A DNA stretch of 60,359 bases, counting the filler, from Dugesia japonica (lineage: Eukaryota), in NCBI GenBank assembly GCA_001938525.1. It is 6 parts of 6 records of this genome, joined end to end, with 100 filler letters (N's around TTAATTAATTAA, not from the genome) between each part and the next. Parts side by side here need not be neighbours in the genome. Positions count along the whole stretch, not along the records: positions 51,857 to 60,359 come from MQRL01610812.1; 5 more parts are not named here. The stretch is one strand, 5' to 3'. The position numbers and the translations under genes were made by a program. Positions 4,897-58,566 of this stretch are shown here, one piece after another. Positions within the stretch are counted from its first letter, which is position 1. Every line of letters starts with the position of its first letter. Under the pieces are notes generated by a model. The model was not told the origin of the DNA. It made no database searches and saw only the letters and a program-made list of their open reading frames with translations.

Positions 4897-7800
4897 TTAA
4901 ATAGCACATTATTTGTTATTTTCATCATATTTGTATTTTCTTAATTAAACTGTTCAAATTTGACATTATATTATAAACTTGATTTTGATAATATCAATAC
5001 TTAAGACCAAGTATTACAACTTTTTCTCTAGCAAATACATTAACACATGCAGGATTGTATTTATCAAGTATCAATGCTAGAAATAATTCAGGTTCATACA
5101 AACACTTGGTTATTCTTGCTAATGTATAAAAATTTACTGATTCTTTCAAAATGACTATAATAGTTAACGATTGTAGCTGAATGTTTTTAACGTTTTACTG
5201 TAAATTCTTNNNNNNNNNNNNNNNNNNNNNNNNNNNNNNNNNNNNNNNNNNNNNNNNNNNNNNNNNNNNNNNNNNNNNNNNNNNNNNNNNNNNNNNNNNN
5301 NNNNNNNNNNNNNNNNNNNNNNNNNNNNNNNNNNNNNNNNNNNNNNNNNNNNNNNNNNNNNNNNNNNNNNNGTTAGTAATCATTAAATAATCAATAAATA
5401 AATTTCATTTAAATATATAAATATGATCAATAATTTTTAGTTAGAAATCAATATTAAAATCAATAATTAATAATAAATATGCTTTACATATTGAATCGTT
5501 TGTTATTGAATGCTTCCACAGCACAATTCATAGGGTCAACATTGTCAGCATTTAATAAAGGACAAATGTAAATTATGATAATTGAAAATATTAAAATCAT
5601 TATTTTGCATAAATAACAAATAATAATTTTCCAGTTTAATTTATATTTAATTTCTGTTGAAATGAACAACTTATTAAAATTAATTCAATGATAAATGTTG
5701 TCTTTTGCTTTCAGTTTGTGTGGATAGAATGACCAATAAATAATCAAATTGATTGGTTGATAATTCCTGCTGATATAATGAATACATATCACATCTCATA
5801 TTATTTGTCTTTTAAACTCTTGTTCTTTTTATTGTTTCATAGTTTCACTTATCAATTTAATCATTGTTTTCATAAATTCAATTTATATTGGTCCCATATC
5901 AGTTTGATGTGAATTTTATCTTAATTTCAATCTTGTAATTTATTTAACTTAAATTTTAAAAAGTTTTCTTAACATTCAGTGAAATAAAAAATAAATTAAA
6001 TTTGTTTGGCTGGAATATTGAATTAAATTCAGCTAAATGTTTTAGAAGTATTCTAAAAATCATGACAATGATTATAAGTAATAATACTACTGTAAAAGTA
6101 AATAGTGTGCATTTAACAGCACAATTCATTAGGTAACCAAGAAAGTTCATTCAATTTTTAAATATAATTCATTCTCGTTTATATGAATTTAATTTATCTT
6201 AATTTTTCTAGGTTATCTAAAGCCATTAAAAATTTTCTTTTGTTTAGATTTATAAAAAAATTTACTATTTAAATGTTGTGATTATCCGAATTAATTCAAT
6301 AATTTTTAATGCTATTCTTGATAATAATGACACCAATTTAAAGCGCATATTATTAATATAAACTGATAATGATAGAAAAACGAATGAATTTATTAATGAT
6401 GGAATTGTAATGATTTATATAATCTAATCATTATTAAAGTATCAATAATAGAAAACTTTAAGGTAAAATTTTAAGAAAAATATTTATAATATACATTTAA
6501 AACAAATTAACAGTAATAATAAAAATATATTAAATAAAACTAAAAGTTACCCGAGAATCGACGAGCGTAGCGCCCGCCGAAGTGAGTAATAAAAATGAAC
6601 AGCTATTTCTACCGTTTGAAAAATGAACTAATTATTAGTTTTTTGACAAGAGCAAAACATAGGATCTTGGTAGTTATCAACATTTGATAACAAACATGAA
6701 ATGAATAGAAACAACCATCAATCATTTAATCACTGAATAAACATAAAAGCGCTCTTTTATTTTACATGGAGTAAACAATAAGAAAATCATTGGAATATAA
6801 AATGAAGTATTTTATATATTGGCAAAGAATTAATTAAGTAAAAATATTAATTATGTATAAAATATTATGTGATATAAATAACTATGAACATAAAAATGTT
6901 CATAGATCAATTAAATAGGTATATTAAAGAGTTATAGTATTGATAAGGATTAGATAAAATTATATAAAAATTAAAAGTAATAGTTAATTATGCTCAAAAC
7001 GATTATTAAACATATCATATTTTATTTTAATATTATTATGTACATAATAGTGTGAATAGCCATATTAATACAAATCCAATTTTTAAAATAAACTACTAAA
7101 TATAAATGAAATTAGTATCATGACAAAGTTGCGAATAAACACAAACAAGGGTCAAAGTAAAATAAAGATGTCAAAATTTTAAAGAAACTTAAATCGGATT
7201 AACTATAACAGAACCACAAATCTTTTTAAAATGATGAGAAGTCATTTTCATGGATGATTTTGTGGCTGTGCAGTATAAACGAAATTGGAGCGACCAAACT
7301 TTAAAGAAATAATAAAATAATGTATCTCATTAGTTTAGTGGAAGTTAAAGACAAATATTATTAAAAATTTGGTATCTGATAAAATTCGAGGGGTTCAAAC
7401 CAGTACATAACTGTAAGATTGTAAATAATCATAAAATTCGGTTAAAAGAGCTTTAACACGATTAATCCTGTGGTTGAGAAAAAATTTATTATTGAGTTAA
7501 TAAATTTTGTTGGATTTGAATTATAATTTACGAGATTTTAGATAAGATTAGAAACCTCAGACGGATCTTTACCTAACAAGGAGCAGATTTAATTTAAAGT
7601 TAGAATAATTTTGTAATTTAGCGAGCTGAGGTTTTGGAAACCCCAACAGATCAAATCAGTCAATTATAGTAAATTGTTTGATTTATAATTATTACATTAA
7701 TTTTAATGCAATTTATTTATATTGTGTCAATGTAAACCAGCTCAAATGTGAATTAAAATTTTTTAATGAATAAATTTTGTTATTTAAATTAGTGTTTTTA

Positions 7801-9104
7801 ATTCTAGTTTTATTCTATAAATAATATTTGTATTTTGCATATTTTTGTTACCACTATTATTATTTTAATATTTTTAATTTTTATCATTGTTATTTTGACT
7901 TTTTTCAGTCTCAATAGTTTGTTAAATTTTCAACTCTTATTATTTAAAGTAAATCAAAGTTTATCTTATAAAAATAATTAAAATTTGAAATTACACGAAA
8001 AATCTATTAACGCGAAAAACTTGAAATTAAATTAAAAAATAATTAAAATTTTAATTTACATTTTAAAATTAAAATTATGAAAAGGAAGCATTTTTATACA
8101 CAAGATCCTATATAAAAAATGTTTAGTTATTATTCTGAGTTCAATGACACTAATTTCAGGCGCATATGATTAATATAAACTGAGAACAACATCAAATTCA
8201 TCCGAATCCAAACAGCACATTCAACACCAGATTAATTTTAAATATAGTGCTCGATAACTCATTAATATGGCCCACAGCTAACTTTAGTCCGTCGCTCACT
8301 GAAGCATTTTACATAATAAGTTCTTTATGCAATGTCAAGGTCGAATTAGTGGTTCACATCAAACACATCATCAATAAAGTGAACACACACGAACGCATAC
8401 CTTTTAAGTCAAATTTCTTATGTTTACGATATCATTACACACACAACAACAATATTATAAAATACACACACTTCACACGCATTAATTGATCAATATAAAG
8501 AAATTTTAGAAGAGTTATTATCATGAGTCAATATTCAATGAGCAAGAGAAAAACAAAATATTATTTTGAAAATGAACATTTGTTTTGGAATAAATTAGAA
8601 ATTGAATCATTATTCTGAAAGAGATCAAGTATTTTTGATTATTCGAATTATGCAATTTATAAGAATGATACAACCAAATTAGTCGTGCAGTTTTTTATAT
8701 GCGATTGTTTTCATATACCGAAATTTAGTTTAAATTTTGTTTAAATTAAATTAAAATTAAATTAAATTAAATCAACTAAACTTGTCAACTAATAAAAGGT
8801 TGTTAAAATTATTTTAATTAGAATAATTATTCGTATATNNNNNNNNNNNNNNNNNNNNNNNNNNNNNNNNNNNNNNNNNNNNNNNNNNNNNNNNNNNNNN
8901 NNNNNNNNNNNNNNNNNNNNNNNNNNNNNNNNNNNNNNNNNNNNNNNNNNNNNNNNNNNNNNNNNNNNNNNNNNAAAATGTTTTGACAAGAATTATGTAA
9001 ATGAAAATATTGATAAGTACCGACCTTTTTGTTTATATTTAACAAAGGTTTTAAAATAATTATTTTGTATTTAATAGGAAATTGAGTTATATTTGTAAAA
9101 ATAC

Positions 9105-9204
9105 NNNNNNNNNNNNNNNNNNNNNNNNNNNNNNNNNNNNNNNNNNNNTTAATTAATTAANNNNNNNNNNNNNNNNNNNNNNNNNNNNNNNNNNNNNNNN
9201 NNNN
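9105..9204. other. Artificial contig/scaffold linker
   Basis: 44 N + TTAATTAATTAA (stops in all six frames) + 44 N. The identical structure occurs five times. Confidence 0.95.
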
Positions 9205-10043
9205 CTGGAGACAGCAAGATTATATATTATTTCTAGAGATTTACACACTTTCTATAAATTTTGCATTCATATTTAATTATTAACGTATTTAATGAAACTC
9301 CTATATCTGATAATGGAATTTTCTATATTTGTAAGAATTTATTTATGCAATGAAATTACTGTTTACTTAAACCATTTACAAATCCATATAACATCTGATA
9401 AAAACGCCATAAAACCTTTTAAAATCCGAGAAAATCCTTTAAACCATAGTAAATTCTAGAAAACTGCAAAAACCACTAAAAACCTTTTATTGGTTTATCG
9501 AATGTATCGACTGCATTGATTTGCAGATTAGCTTAATTAAATTAATCAATACAAGATTTTAACAATTTACATATGTTTTAATATGATTTACATGACTTAC
9601 TGAATTTAGAATTTACATATGACTTAAGGAAATTTACAAATGGACAAATTTAATTGATTATTTTAATTTAGTCTATGAATTATAGAACTTATTGTATATG
9701 GATTTACTATATATAATATTTAATGGAACTACTGTAAGAATTATTCAACTTATGGTATATTTTATACGTCTAAGTAAATTTGATGTTAGATGAGATGAGA
9801 TTTATCTGAAACAAGATAGTTTATAGAGTTTAATGTTAACCTTAAATCATGAAAAGTTTAAAATTTTAAGTAAAACTTATTTGTTTCAATTATTTGATTA
9901 AATAAAGTAGAATACTTATATTCAGAAATCAGGTTTCTACCCAGAGTAATTTACATTTTAGAATTCAGATGATTTAAGTGATGTTTGATCTTCACGTAAT
10001 CAAATTGCACATGGCCTATTACGTAATAAAATAAGAGTCATCG

Positions 10044-11121: not shown

Positions 11122-12391
11122 CTGGGTGTTCCAATTTAATCTTACATTTTAAATTTAATTCCATTTACTTCTGTTTTGTTTTATTAAATCAATTATTGTT
11201 GAATAATAAATAGTAATTCATGCAGTTTTTAAAGATGAATCATTATACCATTGAACAAAAAGTATTTATGGTAAAAAATTATTTTAAATACGGCGAAAGT
11301 TATGCCGAAGTTCGCAGAAAATTTAAGTCGGAATATAGAAGAGAAAGTTGTCCGTCACATGTGACAATTCAAAAAGTTATCAATGAACGGCACCAAGAAT
11401 ATCATAAAGTGATTGCTCGGAAACCAATATTGCAGCTGTAAGCTGTAGTGTAAGTGAGAAACCGAAAACGTCAATCCGCCGACGTTCACAACAATTATCT
11501 ATTACAAGAAGGACATTATTCAGAATTTTGCATAAAGATCTTCATTTTAAGGCATTCAAGATTCAAATAACTCAACAAATAAAGACAGCAGACTTTGAAA
11601 TACACCGTAAATTCAGTAAATGAGCCATTGAAAATATGCATGAAAATGAAACATTTTTCCAAAACGTGAACTTTAGCGACGAAGCATATTTTGAACTAGG
11701 AGGATTTGTGAACACACAGAATTGTAGAATTTGATGCAATGAAAATCCACATGAAATATTACAAAAAAACTCCATTAATCAAAGGTAAATGTTTGGTGTG
11801 GTTTTTGGGCGGGTGGTGTTATCGGTCCTTATTTCTTTGAGAATGAAGCTAGAAATTCTGTAACAGTTACCGGAGCTCGATATAGAAATATGATTGAAAA
11901 ATGCTTGTTTCATAAATTGAAAGGTATGGATACCCAAAACATGTGGTTTTAGCAGACTGGTGCCACATCTCATACGGCAAAAGAAACAATTACCCTTTTA
12001 AAAGAACGATTTGATGAAACATTAATTACTCGAAATGCAAACATTAATTGGCCGCTCAGATCTTGCGATCTAACGCCTCTAAATGTTTTCTTTTCGGGTT
12101 ATTTAATGGAAAAGGTGTGTATTAAAGATCCTGAAACAATTGTTGATCTTAAAGAGAACATCATCTATGAAATTGGTGAAATTAAGCACCAGTTGTGCCA
12201 AAATATCATAGAAAACCTTTGTAAAAGAATGGGTACTTGCTAGGAAGCAGCATGAGGTCACTGGCATGACATTATTTTTCATTGTTAAAGCGGAATATAT
12301 GTACTATCATTGTAAATAATATATTGCTACATTTCATACCATTAACTATTTTTATTGAAAATTTAAAATGTAACCTTACCGGAACACCCTG
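11122..12391 (+). mobile_element. DD37D (maT-type) Tc1/mariner transposon with decayed transposase (~11235-12288)
   Basis: TA flanks. TIRs CTGGGTGTTCC...TTACATTTTAAAT and ATTTAAAATGTAA...GGAACACCCTG. N-terminal YTIEQKVFMVKNYF...VRRKF (DUF4817-like HTH). Motifs FSDEAYF, F*QTGATSHT and WPLRSCDLTPL. Confidence 0.88.
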
Positions 12392-13291: not shown

Positions 13292-13345
13292 AGAAGGTAG
13301 ATATGAGCGCAATGTAATATCCACCCCCAACACTGATTTGCACAA
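13292..13345 (+). mobile_element. Isolated Polinton-like terminus
   Basis: AGAAGGTAGATATGAGCGCAATGTAA matches AGTAGGTAGATATGAGAGCATTGTAA (53150) at 23 of 26 positions. Followed by a C run. Confidence 0.55.
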
Positions 13346-13536
13346 TGTAGTCTTTTAGAATCACACTGAAAGCCATTACTTAAATATCACTCGTAATTTT
13401 TGTGTTTGGAATTTTTCCGTTAGTTTAAAATTTTTCAGTTTTCTTTAAATTTAGCGATCAATTTAAATTTTCGTGGGAAAGTTTTGTTTAATTACTTTAC
13501 ATTAATTCTTATGAATTTATAAAGAAAATTATTTTT

Positions 13537-13735
13537 GAATTCATTTAAAATAAAAGCAGCGATAAAAATTGCTTTCTGTTTTTTGAGATTGATTCACTAT
13601 TTTGACTTTGTCTTCGTTATCGAATCAAACTCAAAAAATAAAGAAATTTTGATCGAAGCTTTTATTTTAAATGAATTCTAAAAAACGATCAATGTTTATG
13701 TCCAACAATTATTCTTTCAATAATTGCAATTGTAA
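13537..13735. repeat. Member of a dispersed palindromic (MITE-like) repeat family
   Basis: Perfect 21-bp inverted repeat 13537-13557 / 13658-13678. The motif TTTGATCGAAGC...TCCAACAATTATT recurs at ~15910-16020, 30770-30865, 38660-38755 and 39400-39485. Confidence 0.7.
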
Positions 13736-16489
13736 AAAATTATTTTTGTTTAAACTAAATTATATTAAATAATATAAATAATATAATTAACATAAATTAT
13801 ATAAATTTGTTCGGTAATAAATTTAAAACACGGTATGGATTGGTTTCTAATCCTGTTTATAAATGTGATTGTAATGAGTCTAATGCCATATACATTTAAG
13901 AAACTACTAGTAATCTCTGTGAAAGAACTTACGAACATAGTCTATTACATAATCATAACAATATTACATAACATTATGTTTAATTTAAATCGTTTATAAA
14001 CAATTATTGTAAAATAGTTTTGTGAAGAAACTTTAGAAATTCTTTGAAGAGAATAATTTATGAGACATTATTGATTATATATGTTCATTCATAAATCAAT
14101 ATTCAAACTGGTCTTTCAAAATCTTTATTGGATAATATTATTAAATTTTAAATATTCTTTAACCTGTTGAAAATTATTAAAATTAAAAGATTGATTTTGT
14201 TTAAAATAGAGAAGAAGTGTAATATTAATAAATTAAAAATCCAGTGGTGTATGTATGCTTGCTCGTAAAGCTCAACATTATTCAAAAAATTTCAAAATGT
14301 TTTTTTATTATGGCTTTTAAACTTTAAAAAATTGATATATTAAAAATCCGGCATGCTCACACATACATTAAAGAATGAAACTATTATTATGCTGTTCAGA
14401 AATTTGAATTTGAAAAGTGTTTCTACAATGGCACACGATTAGTGGTTGAGTATCTTTCTCGAAATTCAATCGCTGCTTGATTTGTTTTTGAGTGAAATCG
14501 GGGTAAAGAAGTCATAGTTTATCGAATTATTTTTACATTGTCTTGACATTTGCGTTGTGTCGATTCCCGGTGATTCCGGTGTTCTGAATTATCAGGAACA
14601 AATAGCAAGGTCCTACTTATGACATTTTAACAGTTGACCTGCAACTTTCGGTATTTGGCCACAGCTAACTTTATGTCGCTTGTTTACGAACGCATAATGG
14701 TAACAATATTAAAGTGAATATTTCGCCACCACATTAGCAAGGTTATTTGTTGAAAGACGATCGAGAATTCACTCGAAACGTAGTCTATAATTTATCTTTC
14801 CGTATGTAACGTCAAAGACACGAGTTCAATTAAAATTTCAAATAAAACGATCAAATATAATTTAGCAAAAAATTTTAGCAAAAAAAAACTTAAATAATAT
14901 TTCATAAAATCAGTTTTTCAATATTTAGCAATAAATAAAGAATAATAAATAAGGAAATTAGAAATGCGGAAATAATAATAAAAAGTAGAAATATGAATAA
15001 TCAAAGTAAAATTATATTTTCAANNNNNNNNNNNNNNNNNNNNNNNNNNNNNNNNNNNNNNNNNNNNNNNNNNNNNNNNNNNNNNNNNNNNNNNNNNNNN
15101 NNNNNNNNNNNNNNNNNNNNNNNNNNNNNNNNNNNNNNNNNNNNNNNNATCAATGTGATATTTAAACAATGATTTTCTTAATCTAATTGTTTGTTCTTCA
15201 TTTCCAGATTCTTTACAATTTATTTTGTATAAATCATTTACTGTAAATTTGATATTCATTTCACAATTATTAATTAATATTCTATTAAATATTTAATTTA
15301 AACAAATTATTTAATTAAAAATTGATATTTAAGTATTATTTAATAATTTAACTTTTTCTGAAATATAACTAAAAATAATTGTAAATAAAATGAAATCAAA
15401 AATAATATTTTTTTAAATAAAAATATAGTTATTACTTAATTAAATATTTTATTTTTAAAATTTATATTAACAAAATTTTTATAAATTATTTAAAAATATA
15501 CAATTTCAAGAATAATTTAAAACATTTAATGAAGTAATAAATATATTTTATATTGTTTTAAAACAGTAATTATAATTTTTAGTTTTTTAAGAAAAATAGC
15601 GAATAAAAAAATTAACAAGAGTTAAAGATTTGAAGAATAATTAATATTATGATTATTGAAGAATGAATTATTATTTGATTTATTTTTAAAGTCTTTTTAA
15701 ATAAATAAATTAAAATTGTTTAAAGTTTTGTGTATAATAAAAAAATATTAACTTTTATTAAAAAAATTGATTTTCAAGAAAAAATTAAACAAGAGATATC
15801 GATTAACTACAATTAATATTTATAAATAACAATAAATTCTTTAAAAGAAGTTTTTATTAAATTAAAAATTTATTAAAATTAAAATTTTTTAAGTTAAAAT
15901 TTTTTTCCAAATTGCAATTATTTCGAGAATAATTGTTGGACATAATCATGGTTTTTATTTTGATTTCGAATCGTTATCCAATATCAATAAAAAAAAAAAT
16001 TTTGATCAAAGCTTTTATATGAAATTAAAATTTTTATTTATATTTTTGATTTCTTACTGACAAGATCGTATCTTTTTTAAAAAGATACAGAATTGCCCTC
16101 AAAATATTCTTAAATTTATAAATAATTATAGAGCCTTTGTGTAAACATTTAACAATATACAAACTAAGTAACACCCGTAAAAATAGTGTATCGTAAATGA
16201 AATGTTAGAAGTCTAAAAATTCCACAATGGTCTGAAAAATACACTAAATTTTAAGAATTCTAAAAATAATAATAAATTGAAATAAAATTTATTTTTAATT
16301 CAATAATTCATTAAAAATATTTTTGTTAATTTCTAAAATACAAAATTATTATTTATTGTTGTCTTGAATTTTCCTAAATAAAATTTTCCATTATTCTTAA
16401 CTTATGTGATAATTGATTAAACTAGTGTTCTTGATATATTACTTGATAAATGCACTTTGATATTCAATATGCTTTCAATGAAATTATTA

Positions 16490-18218
16490 ATTATTATGCG
16501 ATTTGAAAAATTTCAAAAAGCAAATCATAAATTTGCTATTACTGTGGATGAATGGACAGGTTGCACCATCTTACGTTAATTAAACGTAACAGTTCATGTA
16601 GTTAGAATGGAATCAAATAAAGTTGATTGCTATGTACTGTGTTTAATGGAAATAGTTAAGCAGGGAAATGAAGAAACTATTAAATATTCATTTGAAGCTA
16701 AGTTAGCAAACTTTAGCATTTCTTTAAAAAGCGATGTTGTTGCATCAACTAACGATACAGCAGCTGTAATGNAAAAATACGGAAACATTTTAAATGTTTT
16801 AAATCATCTTTGCCATAATTATGCACTCGATATGGCCGTAATGGATTGTTTTTATATACCAATAAATTCTACTCCTAATCAATCTTTAGACTTGGATGAT
16901 ATCGAAAACTTTGTTGATGATAAAATTTAAGATGATGTAGAAGAAGATTTCAGAGAAGATCTGTATTCGGATAACAATTTAGAGTTAGTTGAAGAAAATA
17001 AAGATGTTATGACATTGAGTATTGATTTTGGTCAAATTATTAACAGGTTAAGAGATGTTATAAGAATGTTTAAGAAATCATCTTTAAAGCACTCTATTTG
17101 GCAACAAAATATAGTTAAAAAAATGGGTAAAAACTGAAGTTAAAATAAGACATCAAAACAAGAGGGAATTCTTTGATTGCAATAATTCTACAATTTTTAA
17201 TTTTTTCAAAATGTGTCAAAGAATCCTTAGTGAAATTGAATTTAGAACAAATTTCAGACCATGATTTTTTCGTTCTACAAAACCTTGTTGATGTTCTTTA
17301 ACCAGTTGAAACTGCCATTAGTGAATTTAGCAAGAATGATGCAGATCTCATAACAGTTCAGCGAGTTTACAAATTTCTGTTAGAAAATTTGCAACCTATC
17401 ACACAAACTCTTGGCTACTGATAGATTTAAAACACTTTCTTTTGCGAGCTTTTTAAGTCTTCCATCATCTTTAAAGTTGCCAATAGTTGCTTTGATCCTC
17501 ACAAAGTGCTCAGCATAGTACTTCACAGCATTCAACTAAGTTGNNNNNNNNNNNNNNNNNNNNNNNNNNNNNNNNNNNNNNNNNNNNNNNNNNNNNNNNN
17601 NNATGCTTTATTATAAAATCAAAAAACAAAGAACTTTTTAATTTTTTAAAAATAGTTTTTGGTATTATTTCAGTATCTTAGAATTATCAATGATAATTAA
17701 TGAGAGTATATATTAAAAACAATTAAGTGTATATAATTAAAAGGTGTTGATTTTCTATCGTATGACGTATATTAATTTGATAATTTTTTGAAATTTTGAC
17801 TGGTCAAAAATATTTTTGATCCTTTGAAATATCTTTTGACAATTTTGACTTTATAAATTTTAAAATAAGAATCGTTTTTGTAGTCCAAGATGTTTTGACA
17901 TATTATTAACAAGATTTTAGTAATTTAAGATTCAATTGACTTTATTGACAAAAAAAGCCCTAAATATTAATAATGAAACAATTAATAAATATAATGAACT
18001 GGAAAATGAATTTCACAACTGAATTAACTGAAAGAAAACGGCTGACAACGCTGGATATCTTATATAACACATTGATTACTATACGACCTACCTCAACAGC
18101 ATTTGAAAGAGTGTTTTCAACAGAATATGCAATAAAATCGAATAGGAGATCAAAATTAAATGTAGAAACTTTCAATTCCTTTCTATGTTTAAAATATATA
18201 TTTAAAATAAATAAATAA
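16490..18218 (+). pseudogene. hAT transposase remnants, with an unrelated minus-strand hAT fragment at ~17402-17543
   Basis: KFAITVDEWT, VVASTNDTAAVM...LCHNYALDMAV and DIKTRGNS. C-terminal dimerisation motif LITIRPTSTAFERVFS...RRSKL (ORF 17973-18218). Minus-strand piece LNAVKYYAEHF. Confidence 0.8.
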
Positions 18219-18894: not shown

Positions 18895-18936
<42 letters not shown>

Positions 18937-18985
18937 TAAGAAATGATAATGATAAATAATAATAATATATTGAACGAAATTTTAC

Positions 18986-19588
18986 CTGAAAAACGACAAA
19001 ACATAATTCAATTATGTGTAAAGCTCTTTCAAACGGAGAAATGATCATTTCTGTGGACAACAAAAAAAAGAAAATTGCCGGTAATTGTACAAGTAATGTC
19101 AACAACCAAAATCCAGCAAATTCTGGAATCTAAATATGAATTAACTAAGTTAAGAATTAATTTTGGCACCTTCTCCGCTAAATTACCGGAATATCCAGCA
19201 ATTAATCTTGTAACTTCTAAAATTGTATACAAAATAAATAGAGCCACATTTATCACTCTATAAATATCAGACATTTTCGAAAACTAATAATTTTTTAAAA
19301 CAATATTAATTTGAGAAATTTAAATTGGAACTTCTTGTTCAAGTGTTAGACACATTCCGATGAACCAAAATGGAAAATAAAATGCATTGAAATACAAGGA
19401 AATTTGCAAAGGTAAATTTGAATGATATTCGAATCCTATGATTTCAGGAATGAGTTTTATTTAATAATTATAATTTATTATTAACCAGTTTTATTTTTTT
19501 GTAATCTTTGTTTCTCAAGATCAGAATCTGAAACTGGAAATATATAATTAATCAAATTATCACTGGACTTCTTTCTTTTGTCAATCAT
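18986..19588 (-). CDS. TMEM17: Transmembrane protein 17 (ciliary transition-zone protein); coding exons 19588-19486, 19435-19332, 19283-19170 and 19129-18986; 3' exon missing at contig end
   Basis: Phase-consistent GT-AG splicing (introns 50, 48 and 40 nt) gives MIDKRKKSSDNLINYIFPVSDSDLEKQRLQKNKTGFEYHSNLPLQISLYFNAFYFPFWFIGMCLTLEQEFSKMSDIYRVINVALFILYTILEVTRLIAGYSGNLAEKIPEFAGFWLLTLLVQLPAIFFFLLSTEMIISPFERALHIIELCFVVFQ. This carries the TMEM17 motifs LPLQxSLYFN, RLxxGYxGNLxEK, AGFWLL and PxERA. Confidence 0.92.
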
Positions 19589-20259
19589 TTTTCTAAAATA
19601 TAATTTTAAAATTCCAATTAGTTTTATCAATAATATATTTTAATAATTTTCATCATAAATTTTTGTATCCAAGTAATTTGAATAATTTGATTTATAATTA
19701 GACTATGATTTGTATTTTAAACAATTAAAATTTAACATTAAGGAAAAACTAATTAAAAAAAGATTAAGAAAAAAATATTACCTTAACCTTCTCTTTCAAA
19801 TTTTAAATTAAAATATACTTTAATTAAATTATGAAAAATGAAGTAACTTAATTAATTTTTAAATAATGAAGACTCGATTTCTAACAGGTTCTTAGAATTC
19901 TATGAAAGTTCTAATATTTTACAAAATATTTATCGACTTTTTTAATGTTTCTCATAGTGTTAGTAAGGAATAAATTTTATATTATTAACCAAAAATTGTT
20001 TAAATAGAAATTTTTAAAATTTGCAAATAAAAATAAATTTTATTGATTAAATTTAATACTGAAAATTTATAGAAATTACATGGTATATTTTGAAATAAAT
20101 TTAATGAAAAAGAAAATAATAATTAAGCAATAAATAACACTTGTATTATTAATACTAAATTCTAACTTCGGTAATAATGTCGTCCAATATTTCTGACTAC
20201 ATTTCAAATTTTTTGGTATCATAATCATGTCAAACTGATCATCACTTCCACCAAACCAC

Positions 20260-21364
20260 TCCACTGGAGTTGATATGGGGAACTAAATTGATGTATAATT
20301 TCCAATTTCCCCAGTTTATTCGCCATCGTGGAACTTTCAAACATTTTACCTTTATCTGTCAGAATGGATTTTTATTTACCAAAACAATATATTCATCTGT
20401 TTAAAATTATCATAAAATTTGTCTCATCATCCATTTATGAAACTGATGATAAGCTCAATAGTTTGCTAAAAAGATTAATAATTACTACAATATATTTTTT
20501 TCCTGACTGTCTTTAGTAATGGTCCAGGAATANNNNNNNNNNNNNNNNNNNNNNNNNNNNNNNNNNNNNNNNNNNNNNNNNNGAAATATTTGACCAAAAA
20601 TCATCTGAACCAATAAAAAATTGACCAACCCAAGAAGATAATAGACCCAATCGCCCAAATATTACCTAAACTAACCAATCCTGAGGAAAAATTAGACCAA
20701 ATTCACCTAAAGCTATAAAAAATTGACTAAATTTAAACTAACCGAGAAAAATCCCAACCAAATTCACCTGGACCAATCAAAAATCGACCTCATTCCACCT
20801 CACCGAGAAAATTTTCGACAAAACAACTTAAAACCAATCAAAATTCGACCTCATCCACCTCACCGAGCAAATTCCTAACTAAAAAGCCTATTAAAAAAAA
20901 ATATTCCCATCTAAATACACAGGAAAAAATCCATAGTCTGTTCAAAAAATTTGAAGAACAAAAAAAAAATTTGAACCATAAAAAATTTATTGGAACAAAA
21001 TAATTTATGCCACAAAAATTTTTGCCAGCGGGGGGGGGTGGGGGTGCCTTCTTTAAAAAAGTCAATAGTGGCAATGCGCCACTATCTACCTTCCACTGGA
21101 GTCTATATGGGGAACTAAATTGATGTATAATTTCCAATTTCCCCAGTTTATTCGCCATCGCGGAACTTTCAAACATTTTACCTTTATCGGTCAGAATGGA
21201 TTTTTATTTACCGAAACAATATATTCATCTGTTTAAAATTATCATAAAATTTGTCTCATCATTCATTTATGAAACTGATGATAAGCTCACTAGTTTGCTA
21301 AAAAGATTAATAATTACTACAATATATTTTTTTCCTGACTGTCTTTAGTAATGGTCCAGGAATA
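20260..21364. repeat. ~270-bp direct duplication of the Gypsy integrase tail (20260-20532 / 21092-21364)
   Basis: Near-identical copies, about 7 substitutions by eye. They flank an N gap and a Polinton-like TIR. Confidence 0.9.
20583..21091. mobile_element. Polinton-like terminal region inserted in the Gypsy integrase
   Basis: Internal repeats GACCAAATTCACC and GACCTCATTCCACCTCACCGAG, then a G run (21030-21045), ending GCGCCACTATCTACCT. Homologous to the reverse complement of ~36700-36870. Confidence 0.65.
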
Positions 21365-24300
21365 ATAATTTTTTATCCATAAATTATTTCATACGGTGAT
21401 ACTCTAGTTGCCTTTTGTTGTGTTGCATTTATTGAAAATTGAATTTGAGTTATAAGCTTATCCCAACTAACTTCTTCACATGCACTTTTTATTGTAGTGA
21501 CAATCATATCACGTAGAGTCCTGATCGTTCTTTCTGGCAATCCGTTTGATTGATGTTGGTATGAAGACGAAAACTCTTGGTTAATTCCAAATTTCTGAGT
21601 CATTCTTTTCACCAATTTTCCTTCAAATATCTTGTCTCTATCTGTCAGTATGGATTTGGGCTTGCCGAATCTATATATCTCTTTTATTTTTCTACTACAG
21701 ATTTTTCGTCTTGTTTTGCCATGGCTGACAAGCTAACAAGTTTGCTGTATCTATCTATAATGACTAAAACATACTTCTTCTTTAACGTCGATTCATCAAA
21801 ATAAGCTGCATCAATGAAAATCTGTACTAACGCTCCAAATTCGGTTCGATATAATAGAAATTCTTTTGTTTTATCTGTATGTTTTTCTTTGATTACAAAT
21901 TAAGCCTTTTTTAACTCATGTTCAATATTTCTAAACATATCTAGCCAAAAATAAGTTGTTTGAATATATTCAGTTAATTTTCTCGTGCCCAAGTGACATA
22001 ATTCTTTTTGAATATAATTTATTAAATCCGTCACTGATTTACCTACTAAAACAATCCTCTTCGTATTTTTTATCAACAAACAATAATATATATTCTTCCA
22101 TAACAAATTTATCAATCTCTCCAAAGTATTTATTTTTTTTTAGATTTTTACTAACTTGTAAACTTTTATCTTTAGTATATTCAATTATCTCTTTGGTAAT
22201 TTGATCATTACTTTGAATTTTTATGATAATTTCTTTATCATAACTTGAGCTTTCTTCAATATTTATTCTTCTAACTCTAGATTTTTCACCTTTTACGTCG
22301 TGATGAGTCGTCAAACATTGAGCACACAAACTTTCTGCAATTCTTGATAATTAATCAGCATTTTCATGATCAATGCCTTTACAAAAATGAAGATCAAAAT
22401 CAAATTCTGCTAGGTTTGTAATCCACGTCTGGAACTGTAAACTAATTGGTTTACTTGTTTTCTTCATAAATACTAATGCCTTATAATGAGTTCTGGCTAT
22501 GAACCTTTTTCCGTAAAGATAATGCTTGAAATGAATCATAAATTTGTGTAACGCCAATATTTCGTTTCTGGTTACATAATAACCCTTTTCATGATCAGTT
22601 AAATTACGAGCAATAACAGTTTCCCCACCATCCCTCGACAATTGACTCAAAATAGCACCAATTGCATTGAAACTTGCATCTGTATCTAATATCATTTTGC
22701 TTTGAGGATTTGGAAATGCCAAGATTGGAGAACTAAATAATTTTTCTTTTAGTAGTTTAAAACTGCTGCCACATTCTTCAGTCCACTTCATGACTTCTTT
22801 TGATCCAGTTACTGCTGCATATAGTGAACTGGCACTTGTTGCGTAATCTTTAAAAAACCTACGATAATAATTTGCCAATCCTAAGAAGGTTCGAATTTGG
22901 GTTGAACATTTTGGAATAACAGTCTCTTTTACTTTATTAATAATGCCATCATTTGTTTCAACACCTTTAAAACTGATTGTATGACCAAGTAATTTGAGTT
23001 TTGATACATTAAATATACATATTTCAGGATTTATTTTGAGACCAGATTGCTCAANNNNNNNNNNNNNNNNNNNNNNNNNNNNNNNNNNAATTTCTTGTGT
23101 CTGACCAAAAATTAAAATGTCATCAAGATAAACGAGCACTTCAGTAAATAACATCTCGTTGAAACGTTTTTGCATTAACTCTTGAAAGGTTGCAGGAGCA
23201 GTGCATATTCCAAGCGGCATGTGATTGAAACCAAATTGTACCATTTTCGTGCTGAAAGCTGTTTTTAATTTTGACTTATCCTTTAATAAAATTTAGTAAG
23301 ATCGATTGATGAGAAAAACATAGAGCCATTTAATGTATCCAATAACATATTTATATCTGGAACAGGAAATGAATAATTTTCAGTTACNNNAATTCTATTT
23401 CCTAAAATCAAGGCACATTCTGAGAGAACAATCTTTTTCTGGAACAATTACTAATGGAGAATTCCATGGACTTCAACAAAATTTTATTACATTTGATTAT
23501 AATAGATTTTGTATTAATTCGTCTATCTTGTCATCTAAATGCATAGGTTGTCTTCTTAGATTTATCAATACGGGTTCTCCTTTAGTTTCTATATTATGCA
23601 TTGTTATATTTGTTAACCCTACATCAAATTTTGAATTCATAAAAATGTAGTCAAATTTATCAAGTAATTCAATTATTCTATTGCTGGCATTTAGCTTGAG
23701 AGGTATTCATTTTTTTATTACTATGTTTCTTATTTTTGCATATTACATATTTTGAATCTATGAAATTGATCTTTTTATTCCAATTCCAAACGCTTCCATT
23801 GTATCCATACCACCAATAAAATTTGGAAAAATGTCTTTAACAATGATTAATTTTTTCTCTATATGCTTTTTATTACAATATAATTTAATTCTGGCTTTTC
23901 CTATGAATCGTTTACTTTTCTCAGAAAGTACTCCAGCTAACATTACATTTCAAAATTGAATTTTTGGTGAACCAATCTTCTTCCAAATGTCTTCACTCAT
24001 CACTGAGACAGATGCTCCAGAATCCCATAACATCTCTACACTAATTCCATTACAATTTACACGGCTCCAATTTCTACCATCACGTTTTTGATACATCATC
24101 TTAACATCAAGTTTTCTATCAATATTTCGATTTTTCTCTTTAAAATTCTTTAATGCATCCTCACTGATGAGATGGACACAGCGGGTTGCTGGACATTTTT
24201 TTCATTATTTTCTAAGATATTTATTTATCATGTTCAAAATAAATTAATGAGTCACATTCATTTTAAAGATTCTTCACTATCTTGTTCTGCTATAAATAAT

Positions 24301-25874
24301 ATTCTTTGATTAATGTGCCATCTTTGTAATAATTTCACAATTTCTGAAAGCATGGTCTTCTTTACCACATATTAAACACCTATTTTTTAAAGGACAGTTA
24401 TTATTCTATGATTTATTTCTCCACAGCAAAAACAAGCACCAGGCTGTAGGCATTCGACTCTTGAAGGTGTTTTANNNNNNNNNNNNNNNNNNNNNNNNNN
24501 NNNNNNNNNNNNNNNNNNNNNNNNNNNNNNNNNNNNNNNNNNNNNNNNNNNNNNNNNNNNNNNNNNNNNNNNNNNNNNNNNNNNNNNNNNNNNNNNNNNN
24601 NNNNNNNNNNNNNNNNNNNNNNNNNNNNNTTTGTGATGAAAATATTGTCCTCTGTAATCACTTCCTATTTTATTGTATTTTGGTTCAAAAGCTGGTTTGT
24701 TAACTACACTGGCATAGCTTTCGTTGACAATATTGACATTACCTTTTGCTACAAATTTATCGGGGTTTGCAGCCAATTCTCGACGTTTTTCGTCATTTAA
24801 CTCTAGTTGAAGTGCAAAGAATACATTTAACTTTTCACTTTTTAATCCATTCAGAATAAAAGCTCTTGATATTTCCTCTGATGATCGTTTGATTTCAAAT
24901 ATATCGTGGACTTTTATCTCGAAATTTTGATATTTTTCATCAATCGGCAAGTTTTTCAATTAGCGATCTATTATTAATAAATGTTGATCAAAGCCAACTT
25001 TCGCACTTTTCATTTGTATTGGAGTCCTTATTTGTGTTCTTTTTATGCTACAATTCCTTGGCATCACATCGTAATAGCATATCAAATGCAAAAGAAATTC
25101 CCATTTGATTAAATATGGCAAATTCATTGGCGGTTTGAATCCAATCTACTGCAGTATCTGAAGAATTATAATAAAATGTAGGATTCGGAATAAGCATTTC
25201 TCGAGTAGTTTTTGTTACATTTTTAAAAATCTTTTGTCGCTCTTCTTTCCTTTGCCTAGTAATGGCACTAACTTCTACGTGGTCGCCAGTTAGATTTTGT
25301 AATTCAAAGGTAGACATTTTCAAAGTTTATTAAAATTAAATAAATCAAAATTATTTTAAAAAAAAGTTTAAATATTATATCTAACAATAAATAATAAACA
25401 TACATAGAAATATATGCATAAACGTATATATACTTTCAATATCATTNNNNNAAAAAACAAAATAAAATAAAAATACATAACATATACCATTATTTTAACA
25501 TTTAAATCTTAACACTTAACAAATCTTACTCATTGATTTATATTATCGCTGAAATATTTAACAAACAGATAGAATTAATACAACTACCTAATAGTTATAC
25601 GATGTGTCCAAACTTCAAAGACCACCAATTTATAGTTTCTAGCCAATTTTTCTTATAATCATATTTGCTTTATTTACCGATCACTACTTATGGAGATTAA
25701 TCAAAAATTATTATGTATTGTCATTTATTTGTTAATTTTTATATTATAAAAATTTCAATTAAAAAAAATATTTATTTCTTTTATTTGATTATTTTAGTTT
25801 TATTATATTCTTAAGTATTTATTTAAATTTAGTGGAATCAAAATAAATAGATTTTCGAAGATTACATATAAATA

Positions 25875-27127
25875 TTGGTTTGTGAAATAAGTTCTGCATT
25901 ATTTCCATCAAAATTAAAAGTCGAAGTTATAAAATATAAATCTTTATTTTATTCACAAAAATATTCATCCCTGTTGCATATTACCTGTTGCCAAGGTTAC
26001 CAGCTTCATAAAAACTTTGGGGGGTTTTTTGTAAAAAATCTCTCCAAACACTCCTTGACATCCTCTATTGAATAAAATCGTTGTGTGTTCAAATTATTTT
26101 GAAGCAACCTGAATAGATAGAAATCCGAAGGTGGTAGATCAGGTGAGTGCGATGGGTTCTGTATTGCTTCAAAACCGAGATTCTTTAGTTTGCGTTTGGT
26201 AGCCAAAGCAATATGTGGTTTAACGTTGTCCTGGTGAAATACCACATTCTTTCTTTTCACCAATTCTGGAAGTTTCTTCAGCATCGCCTCCTATATTGTT
26301 TTTTAAGTGGTCGCAGTATTTCTCCGCATTAATAGTCTGACAATTTGGAAGCAGTTTGTAATAAATAATTCCTTTCCCATCACACTCAATGCATAACATC
26401 ATCTTCTTGGAAGGAAAATCTGATTTGGCTACTTATGACTACTCACCTGGACTACACCATGACCACCGACGCTTAATGTTGTTGAAGACAGCTCATATTT
26501 TGTCCACGGTTATCATCCGCTTCAGAAATAGGTCCAATGAATTCAATTTTCAGAGATATTCAAACTGCAATCCGATTAAAAATGTTCTCTTCGGACAACT
26601 CATGCAGGGCCCAAATATTCATATTTTTATCATCCCAAGAATTTGTAAGCGCTTCACAACTGTAGAATACTCAATAACTAAGCTTTGCGTTATTTTTCGT
26701 TTTGAGATATGTCGGTCTGCTTTGATTGCGGCCAAGATTTCGTCGTCATTAGTGGTGACAGGTCGACCTTTTCGGNCACTATCTCGGAGACTGAAATTCC
26801 CAAAACATGCAAATTATATCTCGCCGGTAACAGAGTTTATGGTTAGGTCAATATATACATGGCGTTTTTCACGAAGCGCTTCTGCTCCATTTACCTTTTT
26901 TTGAAAAAAGAGTAAATAATGCCTAAAATACTGCATTAAATATTCAGTTTGATTTGCTTCATTCATTCTGAAATTACGAATATTATAAGATATTTCTGCT
27001 ATACAACTAAATTATCCACAAATTTACAGGGATATTATTGAAACGATTTGGGATTAATAATTATTTCAATAAAATTTGTATTTGAATTTAGTAATTGAAA
27101 ATAATGTAAAACATATTCACAATCCAA
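25875..27127 (-). mobile_element. mariner (DD34D) transposon, full length, decayed
   Basis: TA flanks. TIRs TTGGTTTGTGAAATAAGTTCTGCATTATTT and AAAATAATGTAAAACATATTCACAATCCAA. Motifs KMMLCIECDGKGIIYYKLL, FHQDNVKPH and PSHSPDLPPSDFYLF. Confidence 0.92.
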
Positions 27128-53149: not shown

Positions 53150-56100
53150 AGTAGGTAGATATGAGAGCATTGTAACAGACCTCCTTCAATTACATAATAT
53201 TATAAAGTGTTTTATACAGCTTGTTATGTAATACAGTATATAGTTCCTGTTTCGTTTTCACATATAGTTTTTTTACGTAATCACTTAATCCCTCTTACAA
53301 CATATGATATGATCGTGAAGGTCAATTTTAATTGAATTTTCTCATAATGGCCAATATTGGATTATCTTAATCAAAGTTTTCCTCGGTATAGCTCACAATG
53401 TTTGATTTTGGTTAGATTTGATGAAATATTTGCTCTGGGTGGTCAATATTTTGTCGCATTTGCTCGTGATGATCAAATTTGGTTGATTTTGGTAAAAAGA
53501 ATTCCTCGGGATGGTCTTTTTTGTTTGGTTTTGGTTAAATACTTGCTTACAATTGTCAAATTTAGTGTATTTGGTAAGACATTTCCTCAGGATGGCCGAT
53601 TTTGGTCGAAATTGGCTGGTGATGTTCAAAGATTTCCTCAGGTTGTTTGAATATTGTTGTTATTGTTGAAAACTTGATATTTTGGTTAAGAATATATACA
53701 GTGGCTGTGAATTGTATATTGTTTTTTTTATCGGCATAGAGTTTCTGAGGTCATCGGGCAAAGCTAGCCACGTCAGACATGGGTGGTTATTTAATCAATT
53801 GGAGATTACACAATAGTGTGAATTATATAACAATTTTATAATATGTTACGAAATAGTTCAAACATCCTATAAATCCTGGGCAAAGCCTATTTTGTTAACA
53901 TATTTTAAATTTTTCCAAAAATGAACGTAAATTTCATTGTTTAATTTTTTTTAACATATGGTTATATTTATACACCAGTCTACTCAAAAAGACCTCGGGA
54001 TCATTTCTAGCAAGAAAACCTTTTTTTCAAAAAAATAAACAGTATCTCCAATTTGATAGAGAGTTTTGGACAGAATCCAAATTTCATTACTTAAAATAGC
54101 CGAACCTTATAGGAGGTTGGCAAAATCCATAAAGCTAGTGTAAAAAGTGGTCCATTTCAGGATTCGAACTCTACCACTGAATTTCGAAAAATCAAAAGTA
54201 TTTCAAATTTTTTCATCAACGAATCCATTCGATGAAGAATTTCACGCTAAGAATAACATGGTTAAAAATCATTTATCTTTATCTTTGAGGAACTAAAATA
54301 TAAAAACAAACAAGTATGCAGCTAAGAGACAAAAGCGAGTGTTAGTGTGTAATTAATTCTTCCAAATAAATAAAATTAACCATATGAAAATTGAAATACA
54401 TAACATTAAAATTATAATCAATTAATTGAAATTAGTAAATTAATCATCTTATATTCATTATCTCAAATTTCATTTGATAATTTATGTGAAAAGCATACAT
54501 TATTAATAATAATCAAAGTAAAAAGTTAATATTAAATAAAATCTTACCTAATTTCATTACATTTGTCATATAATTCAAAAAATCTGGAGCATTCTTCATA
54601 TTAGCATAATCTATGAAATTTACAAAATTATTTGTATGATTTGTGCCAATATTCATCATATTAGCATGTTTCATAAAGTTCTGAGCATCCCTTCATATTA
54701 TTTGACTTTAAATCAAAATTGAAATCAAAAGTAAATCATAACAGAAATCAATAAAATCTAAAATTTAACAAAACCAACCGCATTTAAATTTCAACATTTC
54801 AAAAATCTTTATCTTAATATTTTGCCTAATATTTCATTTTTCTAAACATGTAAATTGAAAATCTAGTTAAAAATTAAAGAAGTTACTTATTTCATGAGTT
54901 TTAAAATTATGACGAAATAAACGTGTTCATATTTAAATGATTACACATATTTTTTAATTAATTAATTAAATTCTTGTGATTAAACAAACATCTATTTCAT
55001 TAATATTAGTATGATTAAATTTCACAACTAAAATAATTAAACGTTAATAATTCATAGTTACACAGTCAATAAATAACAAAATAAAACATGTTTTTATAGA
55101 TTTATTTAATATAAAATTTCAGTTGTTTAAGCTAAAATGTTGGTTTATCAACCATAATTATGTATTATCAGCTATAGTGGTGATTTATCAGTTATAATGG
55201 TGATGAATTGTATTGTGCTTTACTATCGACATAGAGTTTCTGAGGTTAATCACCTCAGACTTGTATCATATATGATTATATTTTAATTACATAATAGTTG
55301 TGTAATCGATTGAAAAATATTTAATAGTGTGAATGATATCATAATTGCGGACTTATTGTGTAATAACTCCAATAAACAATGCTGTTCACAAGTTGAAACA
55401 TGTGATTGCCAATTTAACTGATTAAATATATGAATGCACGAATAAAGTGAATGTATAAGGCTAAATATCAATCCACGAGGGAAAAATATAATGAATACGT
55501 ACACAAGGAGACAAATGCCCCGTCACTGGGATCTTATGTGATCATATAAGTTGTTAAATGCATAAAATATTCTGATAGACATTTAAAATTCATATAAAAC
55601 GTATAGATAGATGAACATACGCACAAACAAGCATATATGTAGGGAGGTAAATGATCCCTCATTATGATCCTTTACGAACATATAACTGGTTGAGAACACG
55701 AAATAGGTTCATAGTCAGCTAAATTAATAGAAATTTCATAAGGTCATGGAAACTGATCATAAACGACTAATTGAACATATTTGCCGCTGAACACATGAAG
55801 TGTATAGGTTAATTGCCTCTTAGTGTGATATTTAATATTTATCTGTAACTAATTAAATTGTTTAGAACTTTTATTTTAGATGCTGAAAATCTATTTTCAA
55901 TGTTGAAGTGTTGAATTTCTATAGATTTTGTTAATGGATGGAATGTGTTGATTATATTAAGCGTATTGAACAAGTGTATGGAGTGAGGATTATAAATGCT
56001 ATCAGTTATTTAAGCGAATTAAATAGATTATAATTATTATTATTATTAAATAGATTATAATCACATTGCTCTAATGATTACTCAAATTTGAGATAGTTTT

Positions 56101-56768
56101 TATTTTTTTGATAAACGTTTTCTTGCTAGAAATGATCCGATGTCATTCTGAATCTATTGGTGTGAAAATAACCTTGTGTTAAAAAAACTAAAAATTTGAA
56201 ATTTGCGTTATTTTGTTNAATAAATTAAAATGTTTTAACAAAATAGGCTTTTCCCTAGGATTTTCGCGATTTTTGAGTTATTACACAGTGACGAAATTAT
56301 GATATCAGTCACAATATTGCGTAATTTTCAAATGATTATAGAACTATTATACAAGTATGGTGTAATGATATATGGTGACGTAACAGTACAAACCTGACGT
56401 GATTAGACTTTCCCGATGACCTCAGAAACTCTATGTTGATTCTAAACGACTATACAATTCATAGCCACTGTATATATTCTAAACCGAAATATCAAATTTT
56501 CAACCATCACAACAATATTCAACCAATTTGATAAAATCTTTGAACATTACCAATCCAATTTCGACCAAATTCGACCATATTTTTTTTAAAAAATTCAACG
56601 TTTCAATCCAAATCGACCATCCCTAGGAAATGTCTTACCAAAATCCACCACATTTGACCATTCCGACGAAATTATGTGTTGTATAAATGCGATTAACTGA
56701 TTACGTAAATATCTATATGGAAAACCGAAACACAGACTGTATACTGTATCCGCTCATATCTACCTACT
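53150..56768. mobile_element. Complete non-autonomous Polinton/Maverick-type element (3619 bp)
   Basis: Perfect 6-bp TSD ATTTTA (53144-53149 / 56769-56774). Termini AGTAGGTAGATATGAG...CTCATATCTACCTACT (16-bp perfect IR). Long diverged TIRs ~53150-54060 and ~56075-56768. No pPolB, integrase or capsid ORF recognised inside. Confidence 0.82.
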
Positions 56769-57121
56769 ATTTTATAAAACAAATATATTTTTAAGTTTTT
56801 TCTGGATTTTTGGAGTTTCTCTTTTACAGTTATTTTTTTAGAAATTTCATTTTTCCGTATAAATATTTAATTTTAGTTAAATATTACATTATTCTTTTTA
56901 ATTTATATATATATATATATTTATTTATTTATTTGTTTATTTATTTATTTATGACTTTTCATTCTTTTTTTTAAGATTTCTCTAAGAACCGATTTGGTGG
57001 TATTTACCGCTGTCACCATGTTAGGTAAATCTTACAAAGATAATCTATTTTCAAATGAAAATATTTTTATTNNNNNNNNNNNNNNNNNNNNNNNNNNNNN
57101 NNNNNNNNNNNNNNNNNNNNN

Positions 57122-57363: not shown

Positions 57364-58566
57364 GCAAAACGAGAATTCAAATTTTTTACGCCAAGTATTT
57401 CATCAATTTCACCTGATTTCGGGCCATTTATTGGAGGTACTATTATTAAAATTAATGGACAATTTCTAAATATTGGAACAAAAAGAGAAATTAAGTTTAA
57501 ATACAAAAGTCGTGACATTTTATGCAATATATTACAGTAAGAAATTTATATGGATATGATATATGATTTGGTAACTTCTAAACTTTATTAAGACTACCAA
57601 ACTTTTATTATGTGTACCACAATTGGTACTTTTTTCCATTAATTTTATTATGAATAAAACCAACTTCTAAAGTCAATTATTGGTTTTAGTAGATTAAATA
57701 CAAATTTATTTGGTTCTTTCCATTTTTATATGTGTATACCACTCTTCTGTCATATGCCCACTATTTCCACATCGCTTGCACCTGATTTCTTGGAATATCC
57801 TTCTAATGTGGTCTACCTTACCACAATCAAAACATTTTCTTGGTTTTTATCTGGGGCAAACTCGACTTATATGTCCTTTTTTATGTCAAATCTATTTGAC
57901 ACTCTAATACCTTTTTTGTCGAACAATTTGCTTTAGTGTAATCAATCTTTTGACATAGACAACATTCAATATTTCTTTTTCCTACCTTTGATCAACGTGT
58001 AAACTCACTGTATGATTTATAGGTTTCTCTTAATTTCGACTTGTAACTCTGGCTTAAGTTCTAACTGCATCAGGTTTATATCTTCTATTTTCTATTCGAT
58101 CTACTAACGCCGTTGTTTCTTTAATTTCTTCTATATTCTGTCGTTTCCGNAAAGTCACTCCTTCTTCAACTTTCATTTTCCTTTGTTAAATCTTTATTTG
58201 AATATAATCTTTTCACTAAATCTTTTACATTTTTAAAACAAACTTCAATCTCTTCATTTCGACATTTGTAGTTAATCAGAATTCGAAAATATTTGGCATT
58301 TTTCTTTTTCTCAAACGAGCCTGAAATACTTAAACCTTTTTCAACGTTTTTACATATTCTTCTTGTAAATTGCTATCTAACAAACTAATCTTACCTATTG
58401 TTTCTTCTGTTTCTTGTTACCAACAAAATACAATTCACAACACTATGCATTTTTCAATGTCATCTCTTCTAGGGAGCACATATATACCCAATCTGTAATT
58501 GAATCGGTATTTACCGCTGTCATTATGTTAGGTAAATCTTACAAAGATAATTTATTTTCAAAATTG
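57364..58566 (+). CDS. Fragment of an IPT/TIG-domain protein gene (plexin/MET-like); exons 57364-57536, 57593-57625 and 58473-58566
   Basis: AG/GT-bounded exon encoding AKREFKFFTPSISSISPDFGPFIGGTIIKINGQFLNIGTKREI...ILCNIL, the classic P.I..I.P..GP..GGT.I.I.G..L..G IPT motif. The two downstream exons are phase-consistent but less certain. Confidence 0.75.
57710..58450 (-). pseudogene. Decayed Gypsy pol fragment inside an intron
   Basis: Homologous to ~37790-38300. No intact frame. Confidence 0.5.

Follow-up and report, generated by a model that had tools for sequence, protein, structure and literature searches.

What kind of element occupies positions 53150-56768 of the Dugesia japonica assembly GCA_001938525.1, in the window of 60,359 nucleotides that we analysed as a whole, and how did it come to be there? 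The insertion measures 3,619 bp and carries ATTTTA on either side, with the two copies of this 6-bp duplication lying flush with the left end (53144-53149) and the right end (56769-56774). When flush duplication lengths from 1 to 19 were compared, matches occurred only at 1 and 6; two 6-mers drawn at random, one from each flank, are identical with a local probability of 0.0023 in flanks that are 82% AT. The perfect target-site duplication described in the first-pass annotation is therefore confirmed at exactly 6 bp, a length taken from one complete pair (n = 1). The terminal 16 bases, AGTAGGTAGATATGAG, are the same at the left terminus (53150-53165, plus strand) and the right terminus (56753-56768, minus strand), while the bases immediately beyond them are unlike (A versus T), which places the boundary at AG...CT, as had been proposed. 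Two exact matches to AGTAGGTAGATATGAG occur in the window, and five at up to three mismatches against 0.30 expected. The terminal motif reads AGTAGG, with AG at positions 1-2 and 4-5. The “reiterated” end motif noted earlier is imperfect, AGTAGG rather than (AGT)2, with which it agrees at five of six bases, the motifs compared being those of vertebrates. An inserted element with a shared duplication and inverted arms is real.

The left terminal inverted repeat (TIR) spans 53150-54056 (plus strand, ~907 bp, 31% GC) and the right one 56082-56768 (minus strand, ~687 bp, 30% GC), in agreement with the 0.7-0.9 kb first estimated. Their identity, which the first-pass annotation had asked to be quantified, is 80.4% over 653 gap-free columns, with 51 transitions and 77 transversions (K2P 0.23); the main BLAST block, with 52 gap positions in 507 columns, gives 72.6%. 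A 24-mer quoted earlier from the left arm and its reverse complement in the right arm are both present, each one base away from the coordinates then given (at 53735 and 56412-56435). The arm-arm duplex energy of -312, against -49 for shuffled sequence, simply restates the 80% identity.

Alignment of the arms reveals a 62-bp left-arm segment just inside the terminus that has no right-arm counterpart (53168-53229, plus strand) and a 37-bp right-arm segment missing from the left arm (~56357-56393, minus strand). A motif search resolved degenerate subterminal units of ~41 bp at 53366-53660 (plus strand; repeat families D3, D5, and D13), with six matches to the motif in the left arm and two in the right, which is without most of this subrepeat zone. 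The left-arm zone weakly resembles 20615-20696 and 36815-36870 (63-70%, E about 9e-4). Between the arms lie a third, internal arm-like piece in left-arm orientation (55193-55372, plus strand; 69.6% identity with the right arm in 194 columns) and an old internal duplication (55507-55733, plus strand) with a period of 136 bp and 66% identity over 92 columns. An AT-rich inner zone at 54092-55087 has matches of at least 80% in many other contigs and probably represents a common repeat, either captured or nested; a search of 54.0-55.2 kb for the ends and duplication of a nested element returned only AT-rich matches of 11-12 of 14 bases. The earlier reading had missed the internal arm-like piece, the unequal number of ~41-bp subrepeats, and six further AGTAG-type ends that are described below.

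The longest stop-free frame within the element is 100 aa. Reading all six of its frames through with X gave no Pfam family at E ≤ 1 and no PHROGs family at E ≤ 0.1, and an Rfam search of the element returned no matches. Capsid proteins, packaging ATPase, protease, protein-primed B-family DNA polymerase, and integrase were none of them found in the element by these Pfam and PHROGs comparisons, a six-frame scan that could miss heavily frameshifted gene remnants. Across the window, 0 of 104 ORFs (stop-free frames of at least 65 aa) match the polymerase, ATPase, protease, or capsid families of Polintons; the ORFs match pieces of gypsy, piggyBac-like, mariner/Tc1, and hAT elements, and the only rve match lies within the gypsy element at 21.7-21.9 kb.

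Polymerase and integrase together define Polintons (PMC5499653), which are given as 15-25 kb in size (PMC6431247) with a duplication length of 6 bp (PMC10045372) and, in two described cases, TIRs of 584 bp and 744 bp (PMC3014272; 10.1101/2024.01.15.575659, the latter for 744 bp). According to PMC8097293, vertebrate Mavericks end in (AGT)2//(ACT)2, (AG)3//(CT)3, or (AC)3A//T(GT)3, and jumping-back during protein-primed replication is the role suggested for these motifs. With autonomous Polintons/Mavericks (Polintoviricetes) as so described, the element has in common the 6-bp duplication, the AG...CT ends, and TIRs of several hundred bp; it differs in its AGTAGG end, which is none of (AGT)2, (AG)3, or (AC)3A, and in its size of 3.6 kb, with none of the genes for pPolB, integrase, ATPase, protease, and capsid found. 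An autonomous Polinton/Maverick was rejected, polymerase and integrase being absent and 3,619 bp standing against 15-25 kb.

Two other groups came into consideration. Ginger1 and Ginger2 are integrase-type DNA transposons with TGTNR ends, of which non-autonomous copies exist (PMC2836005), and their duplications are given as 4 bp and 4-5 bp (PMC10045372). Ginger1 and Ginger2/TDD have TIRs, as the element does, but of 40-270 bp compared with 907 and 687 bp; they were set aside because the element has AG...CT ends and a 6-bp duplication. IS3EU/GingerRoot elements usually duplicate 6 bp, again like the element, and encode an integrase-related transposase (PMC10045372); their termini are TA..TA or TG..CA, and we rejected them because the element ends in AG...CT. 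Taken together, the 6-bp duplication, the AG...CT ends, the long arms, and the lack of coding capacity fit a Polinton derivative better than they fit Ginger, IS3EU/GingerRoot, or a TTAA-specific element. Kolobok and piggyBac, whose target is TTAA, were rejected as well, given that TTAA fits the left end and not the right and only two of eight such ends in the window.

Non-autonomous Polintons are an already known kind of object in other animals, of which the copy at 53150-56768 would be a putative member. The zebrafish family Polinton-1N1_DR is a Repbase family named in PMC9341505, and the Repbase suffix N1 denotes a non-autonomous derivative family (PMC4455052); likened by name and description, it is the same kind of object, with Polinton-type ends and without the full gene set. 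Repbase assigns membership by an equal duplication length together with agreement to a known member at terminal positions 1-11 (PMC4455052). Polinton-N1A_NV has a capsid protein (PMC11296320), and a study of the anole reports that non-autonomous Polinton copies appear to be lacking there (PMC3014272). Non-autonomous Polintons are thus named in Repbase and little discussed in the literature searched. The named families are multi-copy, whereas our element appears to have no near-identical sister in the public run X7, and its arms are 80% alike and of unequal length. As general context, piRNAs are described as targeting Polintons in Schmidtea (PMC8532177), and an expansion of DNA/Maverick repeats is reported for Dugesia (10.64898/2025.12.11.693146); further papers were of little bearing (10.1101/2025.02.07.637071, PMC5753468).

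Contigs from 4 of 14 listed public runs were compared with the window at 80% likeness. Run X7 includes a 1,777-base contig (record 17, depth 9.92) that extends unbroken over 52249-54017, taking in the left flank plus almost all of the left arm and differing at 11 letters and two gaps, and a second contig (record 24) that crosses the right junction (56609-56888). Both junctions exist outside assembly GCA_001938525.1, though the best-matching run may be the window's source. Contigs of such assemblies break at shared 31-mers. Because the left-arm contig is unbroken, X7 would contain neither a near-identical second left arm nor an empty allele at the left junction. The first-pass annotation had envisaged an active family with many near-identical 3.6-kb copies; one single-depth X7 contig through the left arm points the other way. 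No listed contig spans the whole element, and no empty-site joint was present among the 15 of 142 joints listed.

Summed contig depth in X7, which is not a copy number, reaches 1,272-9,686 over 54092-55087 compared with about 10 for own-locus contigs; it is 14-74 in the outer and middle arm bins and 47-106 in bins 55420-55917. Diverged relatives of part of the core are present in other contigs, and record 8 of run X10 matches 55547-55636 with 17 differences. Run X10, which bears the same species label, has almost no words in common with the element and gave no orthologous site; it does contain relatives of the arm block and the core at 81-83%, and one of its contigs links a terminus-like piece to the arm block. 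X10 may represent a divergent lineage with related elements of its own. A 57-bp repeat (95%) at 56999-57055 and 58506-58562, a common repeat just to the right of the element, lies in a stretch that also has very high summed contig depth.

The element's ends are not the only ones of their type in the window. There, AGTAGRTAGATAKG has six matches at up to one mismatch against 0.05 expected, and AGTAGRTAGATA has five exact matches against 0.01 expected. Another six ends of AGTAGRTAGAT type, all beginning with AG, stand unpaired at 418(-), 13292(+), 21091(-), 28796(-), 36433(+), and 59731(-). Counting two looser ones, 60 kb contains eight ends, and a duplication closes only the 53150-56768 pair. 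We sought partners for the six others with duplications of 4-8 bp and found none convincing, three 9-of-12 matches being judged chance. The first 26 bases of the end at 13292 are 88% like the element's left end, and the ends at 21091 and 36433 have subterminal repeats in common (76-86%). The neighbouring ends read AGTAGATAGATAG, a 4-base rhythm that falls outside the three vertebrate end motifs of PMC8097293. Tandem units of 42 or 61 bp occur at some of the ends, and since the subterminal sequences of the ends differ, several subfamilies appear to be present. The subterminal units of 42 and 61 bp at 191-310 and 28535-28758 are rich in TGACCTTGA, those at 191-310 additionally carrying GTTGCCATGG; these sequences may resemble nuclear-receptor half-sites and RFX boxes.

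The same terminal and arm sequences were also used to scan viral and metagenomic collections. An IMG/VR scan with the 16-bp terminus gave 28 loci with no alignment better than E = 0.2, and a metagenome scan with a 17-bp arm block gave 36 loci whose best alignments cover 19-27 bases around the seed; we read both as chance. With the neighbours' 14-bp end, IMG/VR returned at least 121 loci, the best among the matches listed being AT-rich pieces of 25-56 bp, again chance. One match from the 14-bp scan, also among those listed, lies three bases from the end of its IMG/VR locus and was rejected, as it points outward within an apparent reading frame.

We favor, with a probability of roughly 0.55, the reading that the element is an old, gene-less, non-autonomous insertion of Polinton/Maverick type that was likely integrated by a helper's integrase. 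The first-pass call of a mini-Polinton holds as far as the anatomy goes, but not in a link to any polymerase- or integrase-coding element, with a Polinton gene in 0 of the 104 ORFs. In the mechanism that we propose, a short unit would be integrated in trans by a retroviral-like integrase from a helper element, with both ends joined across a staggered cut at a 6-base offset and gap repair giving rise to the duplication. The terminal AGTAG motif may act as the cis signal for the helper's integrase and perhaps also for its protein-primed polymerase; AGTAGG would be compatible with a 3-base jump in protein-primed replication, though it is not an exact published motif. We infer the helper from the ends alone because no autonomous partner was seen. 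Under this mechanism, no near-identical sister copy would exist, and the element has likely been decaying since integration. An enriched terminal motif in a window where 0 of 104 ORFs encode a Polinton gene suits short non-coding elements and was counted in favor. Counted against were the AGTAGG end and the 4-base rhythm of the neighbouring ends, a 6-bp length known from one complete pair while the six other ends stand unpaired, a density of 7-8 ends in these 60 kb that greatly exceeds the median of eight Mavericks per vertebrate genome given in PMC8097293, and the 22 perfect bases of termini plus duplication, which fit simple old decay poorly (P about 0.01).

The same termini could instead belong to a non-autonomous, foldback-like element with long TIRs from another or an undescribed DDE superfamily, one that has AG...CT ends and a 6-bp stagger and moves by cut-and-paste. 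Such an origin would account for an end motif that is dense in a window without any Polinton gene, for arms made of 41-, 42-, or 61-bp subterminal units in unequal numbers, and for an AGTAGG end that is no exact published Maverick motif, but the described superfamilies do not supply a match: Ginger1/2 differ in both ends and duplication (TGTNR, 4-5 bp; PMC2836005), IS3EU/GingerRoot agree in their 6-bp duplications but not in their TA..TA or TG..CA ends (PMC10045372), a TTAA target suits just 2 of the 8 ends, and the literature searched, which holds no full table of termini, names no other superfamily with AG...CT ends and 6-bp duplications. We consider this origin possible but unlikely. The composition of the interior, a third arm-like piece plus a common repeat rather than truncated genes, speaks against a different history, in which a full-length Polinton integrated and its coding interior was later deleted in place, so that the 3.6-kb form itself never moved. 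That no gene remnant appears in six frames also speaks against it, weakly, since frameshifted remnants could escape. The deletion would agree with X7 having no near-identical second left arm and with old-looking arms (K2P 0.23) in which runs of perfect matches are as random decay would leave them (p = 0.29 and 0.41), and we regard it as rather doubtful.

It is very improbable that the pair is a chance meeting of unrelated ends from a common family or an artefact of assembly. The local chance of the duplication (0.0023) and arms whose likeness to each other (E = 1e-81) goes far beyond the likeness of either to the six other ends argue against such a pairing, as do the contigs of public runs that cross both junctions, even though the window is rich in ends of this type, the arms are 20% different, the flanks are 82% AT, and the whole stretch is not spanned by any listed contig.

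For the favored Polinton/Maverick derivative, it is about even whether the 20% divergence of the arms is wholly later than the insertion or in part goes back to a parent with unlike arms. The arms differ by large indels. The 22 perfect bases of termini and duplication have P about 0.01 at 19% uniform mismatch, a value weakened by the fact that the element was picked for its perfect ends. Private changes in a three-way alignment number 24 for the left arm and nine for the right (163 columns, relative-rate p = 0.014), and after trimming of the edges and a T-run (98-129 columns) the difference stands at p = 0.06-0.09. The asymmetric or chimeric ends suggested at first thus find a weak indication when all columns are used, but significance is lost on trimming. 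Conserved arm blocks were considered as a sign of selection, and the perfect-match runs are no more than random (p = 0.29 and 0.41). GC/AT differences between the arms are balanced (35 versus 30), and no GC-to-AT decay bias was seen (7:13, 7:9, and 3:4). Had the copy moved recently, close sisters should exist, and X7 shows none.

A single old non-coding insertion matters little beyond repeat annotation; the density of AGTAG-type ends is the part worth following. One extension of the favored reading, drawn from one window and one complete pair, is that gene-less, long-armed elements with AGTAG ends form a large and diversified population in the genome, being MITE-like satellites of Polintons that would have stayed mobile with ~80% arms because only the terminal ~16 bases matter. 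We put it forward as a speculative and improbable extension. If true, it would establish the smallest cis signal that Polinton mobilization requires, and the Maverick “expansions” reported for some animal genomes could be mostly satellites, not viruses. Were the AGTAG-ended population dependent on Polintons, it would constitute a natural data set on the end sequences needed by the Polinton integrase and polymerase and could show whether matched arms are required.

Other repeats and gene-like pieces are scattered through the window. A broken gypsy-type LTR retrotransposon occupies about 20200-25330 on the minus strand, with pieces of protease, RT, RNase H, and integrase. Inside this gypsy copy, a 273-bp stretch is repeated at 97% (20260-20532 and 21092-21364) astride a gap and an element end; the two may be an empty and a filled allele that scaffolding has placed next to each other. 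Decayed transposase pieces lie at 3330-4301, 34546-34968, 11217-11438, 17964-18215, 26009-26432, and 45358-46269 and comprise two piggyBac-like pieces (DDE_Tnp_1_7), an HTH DUF4817, a hAT dimerisation domain, a mariner-like piece, and a Tc1-like copy. A palindromic, AT-rich, MITE-like repeat is present at 13532-13790, 15853-16028, 38659-38778, and 39376-39485 in copies that are 77-87% alike. Host-gene-like pieces occur on the minus strand at 18896-19283 and 4997-5194, with matches to Transmemb_17 (E = 2e-10 and 4e-6) and a weak match to TBP below the cut-off.
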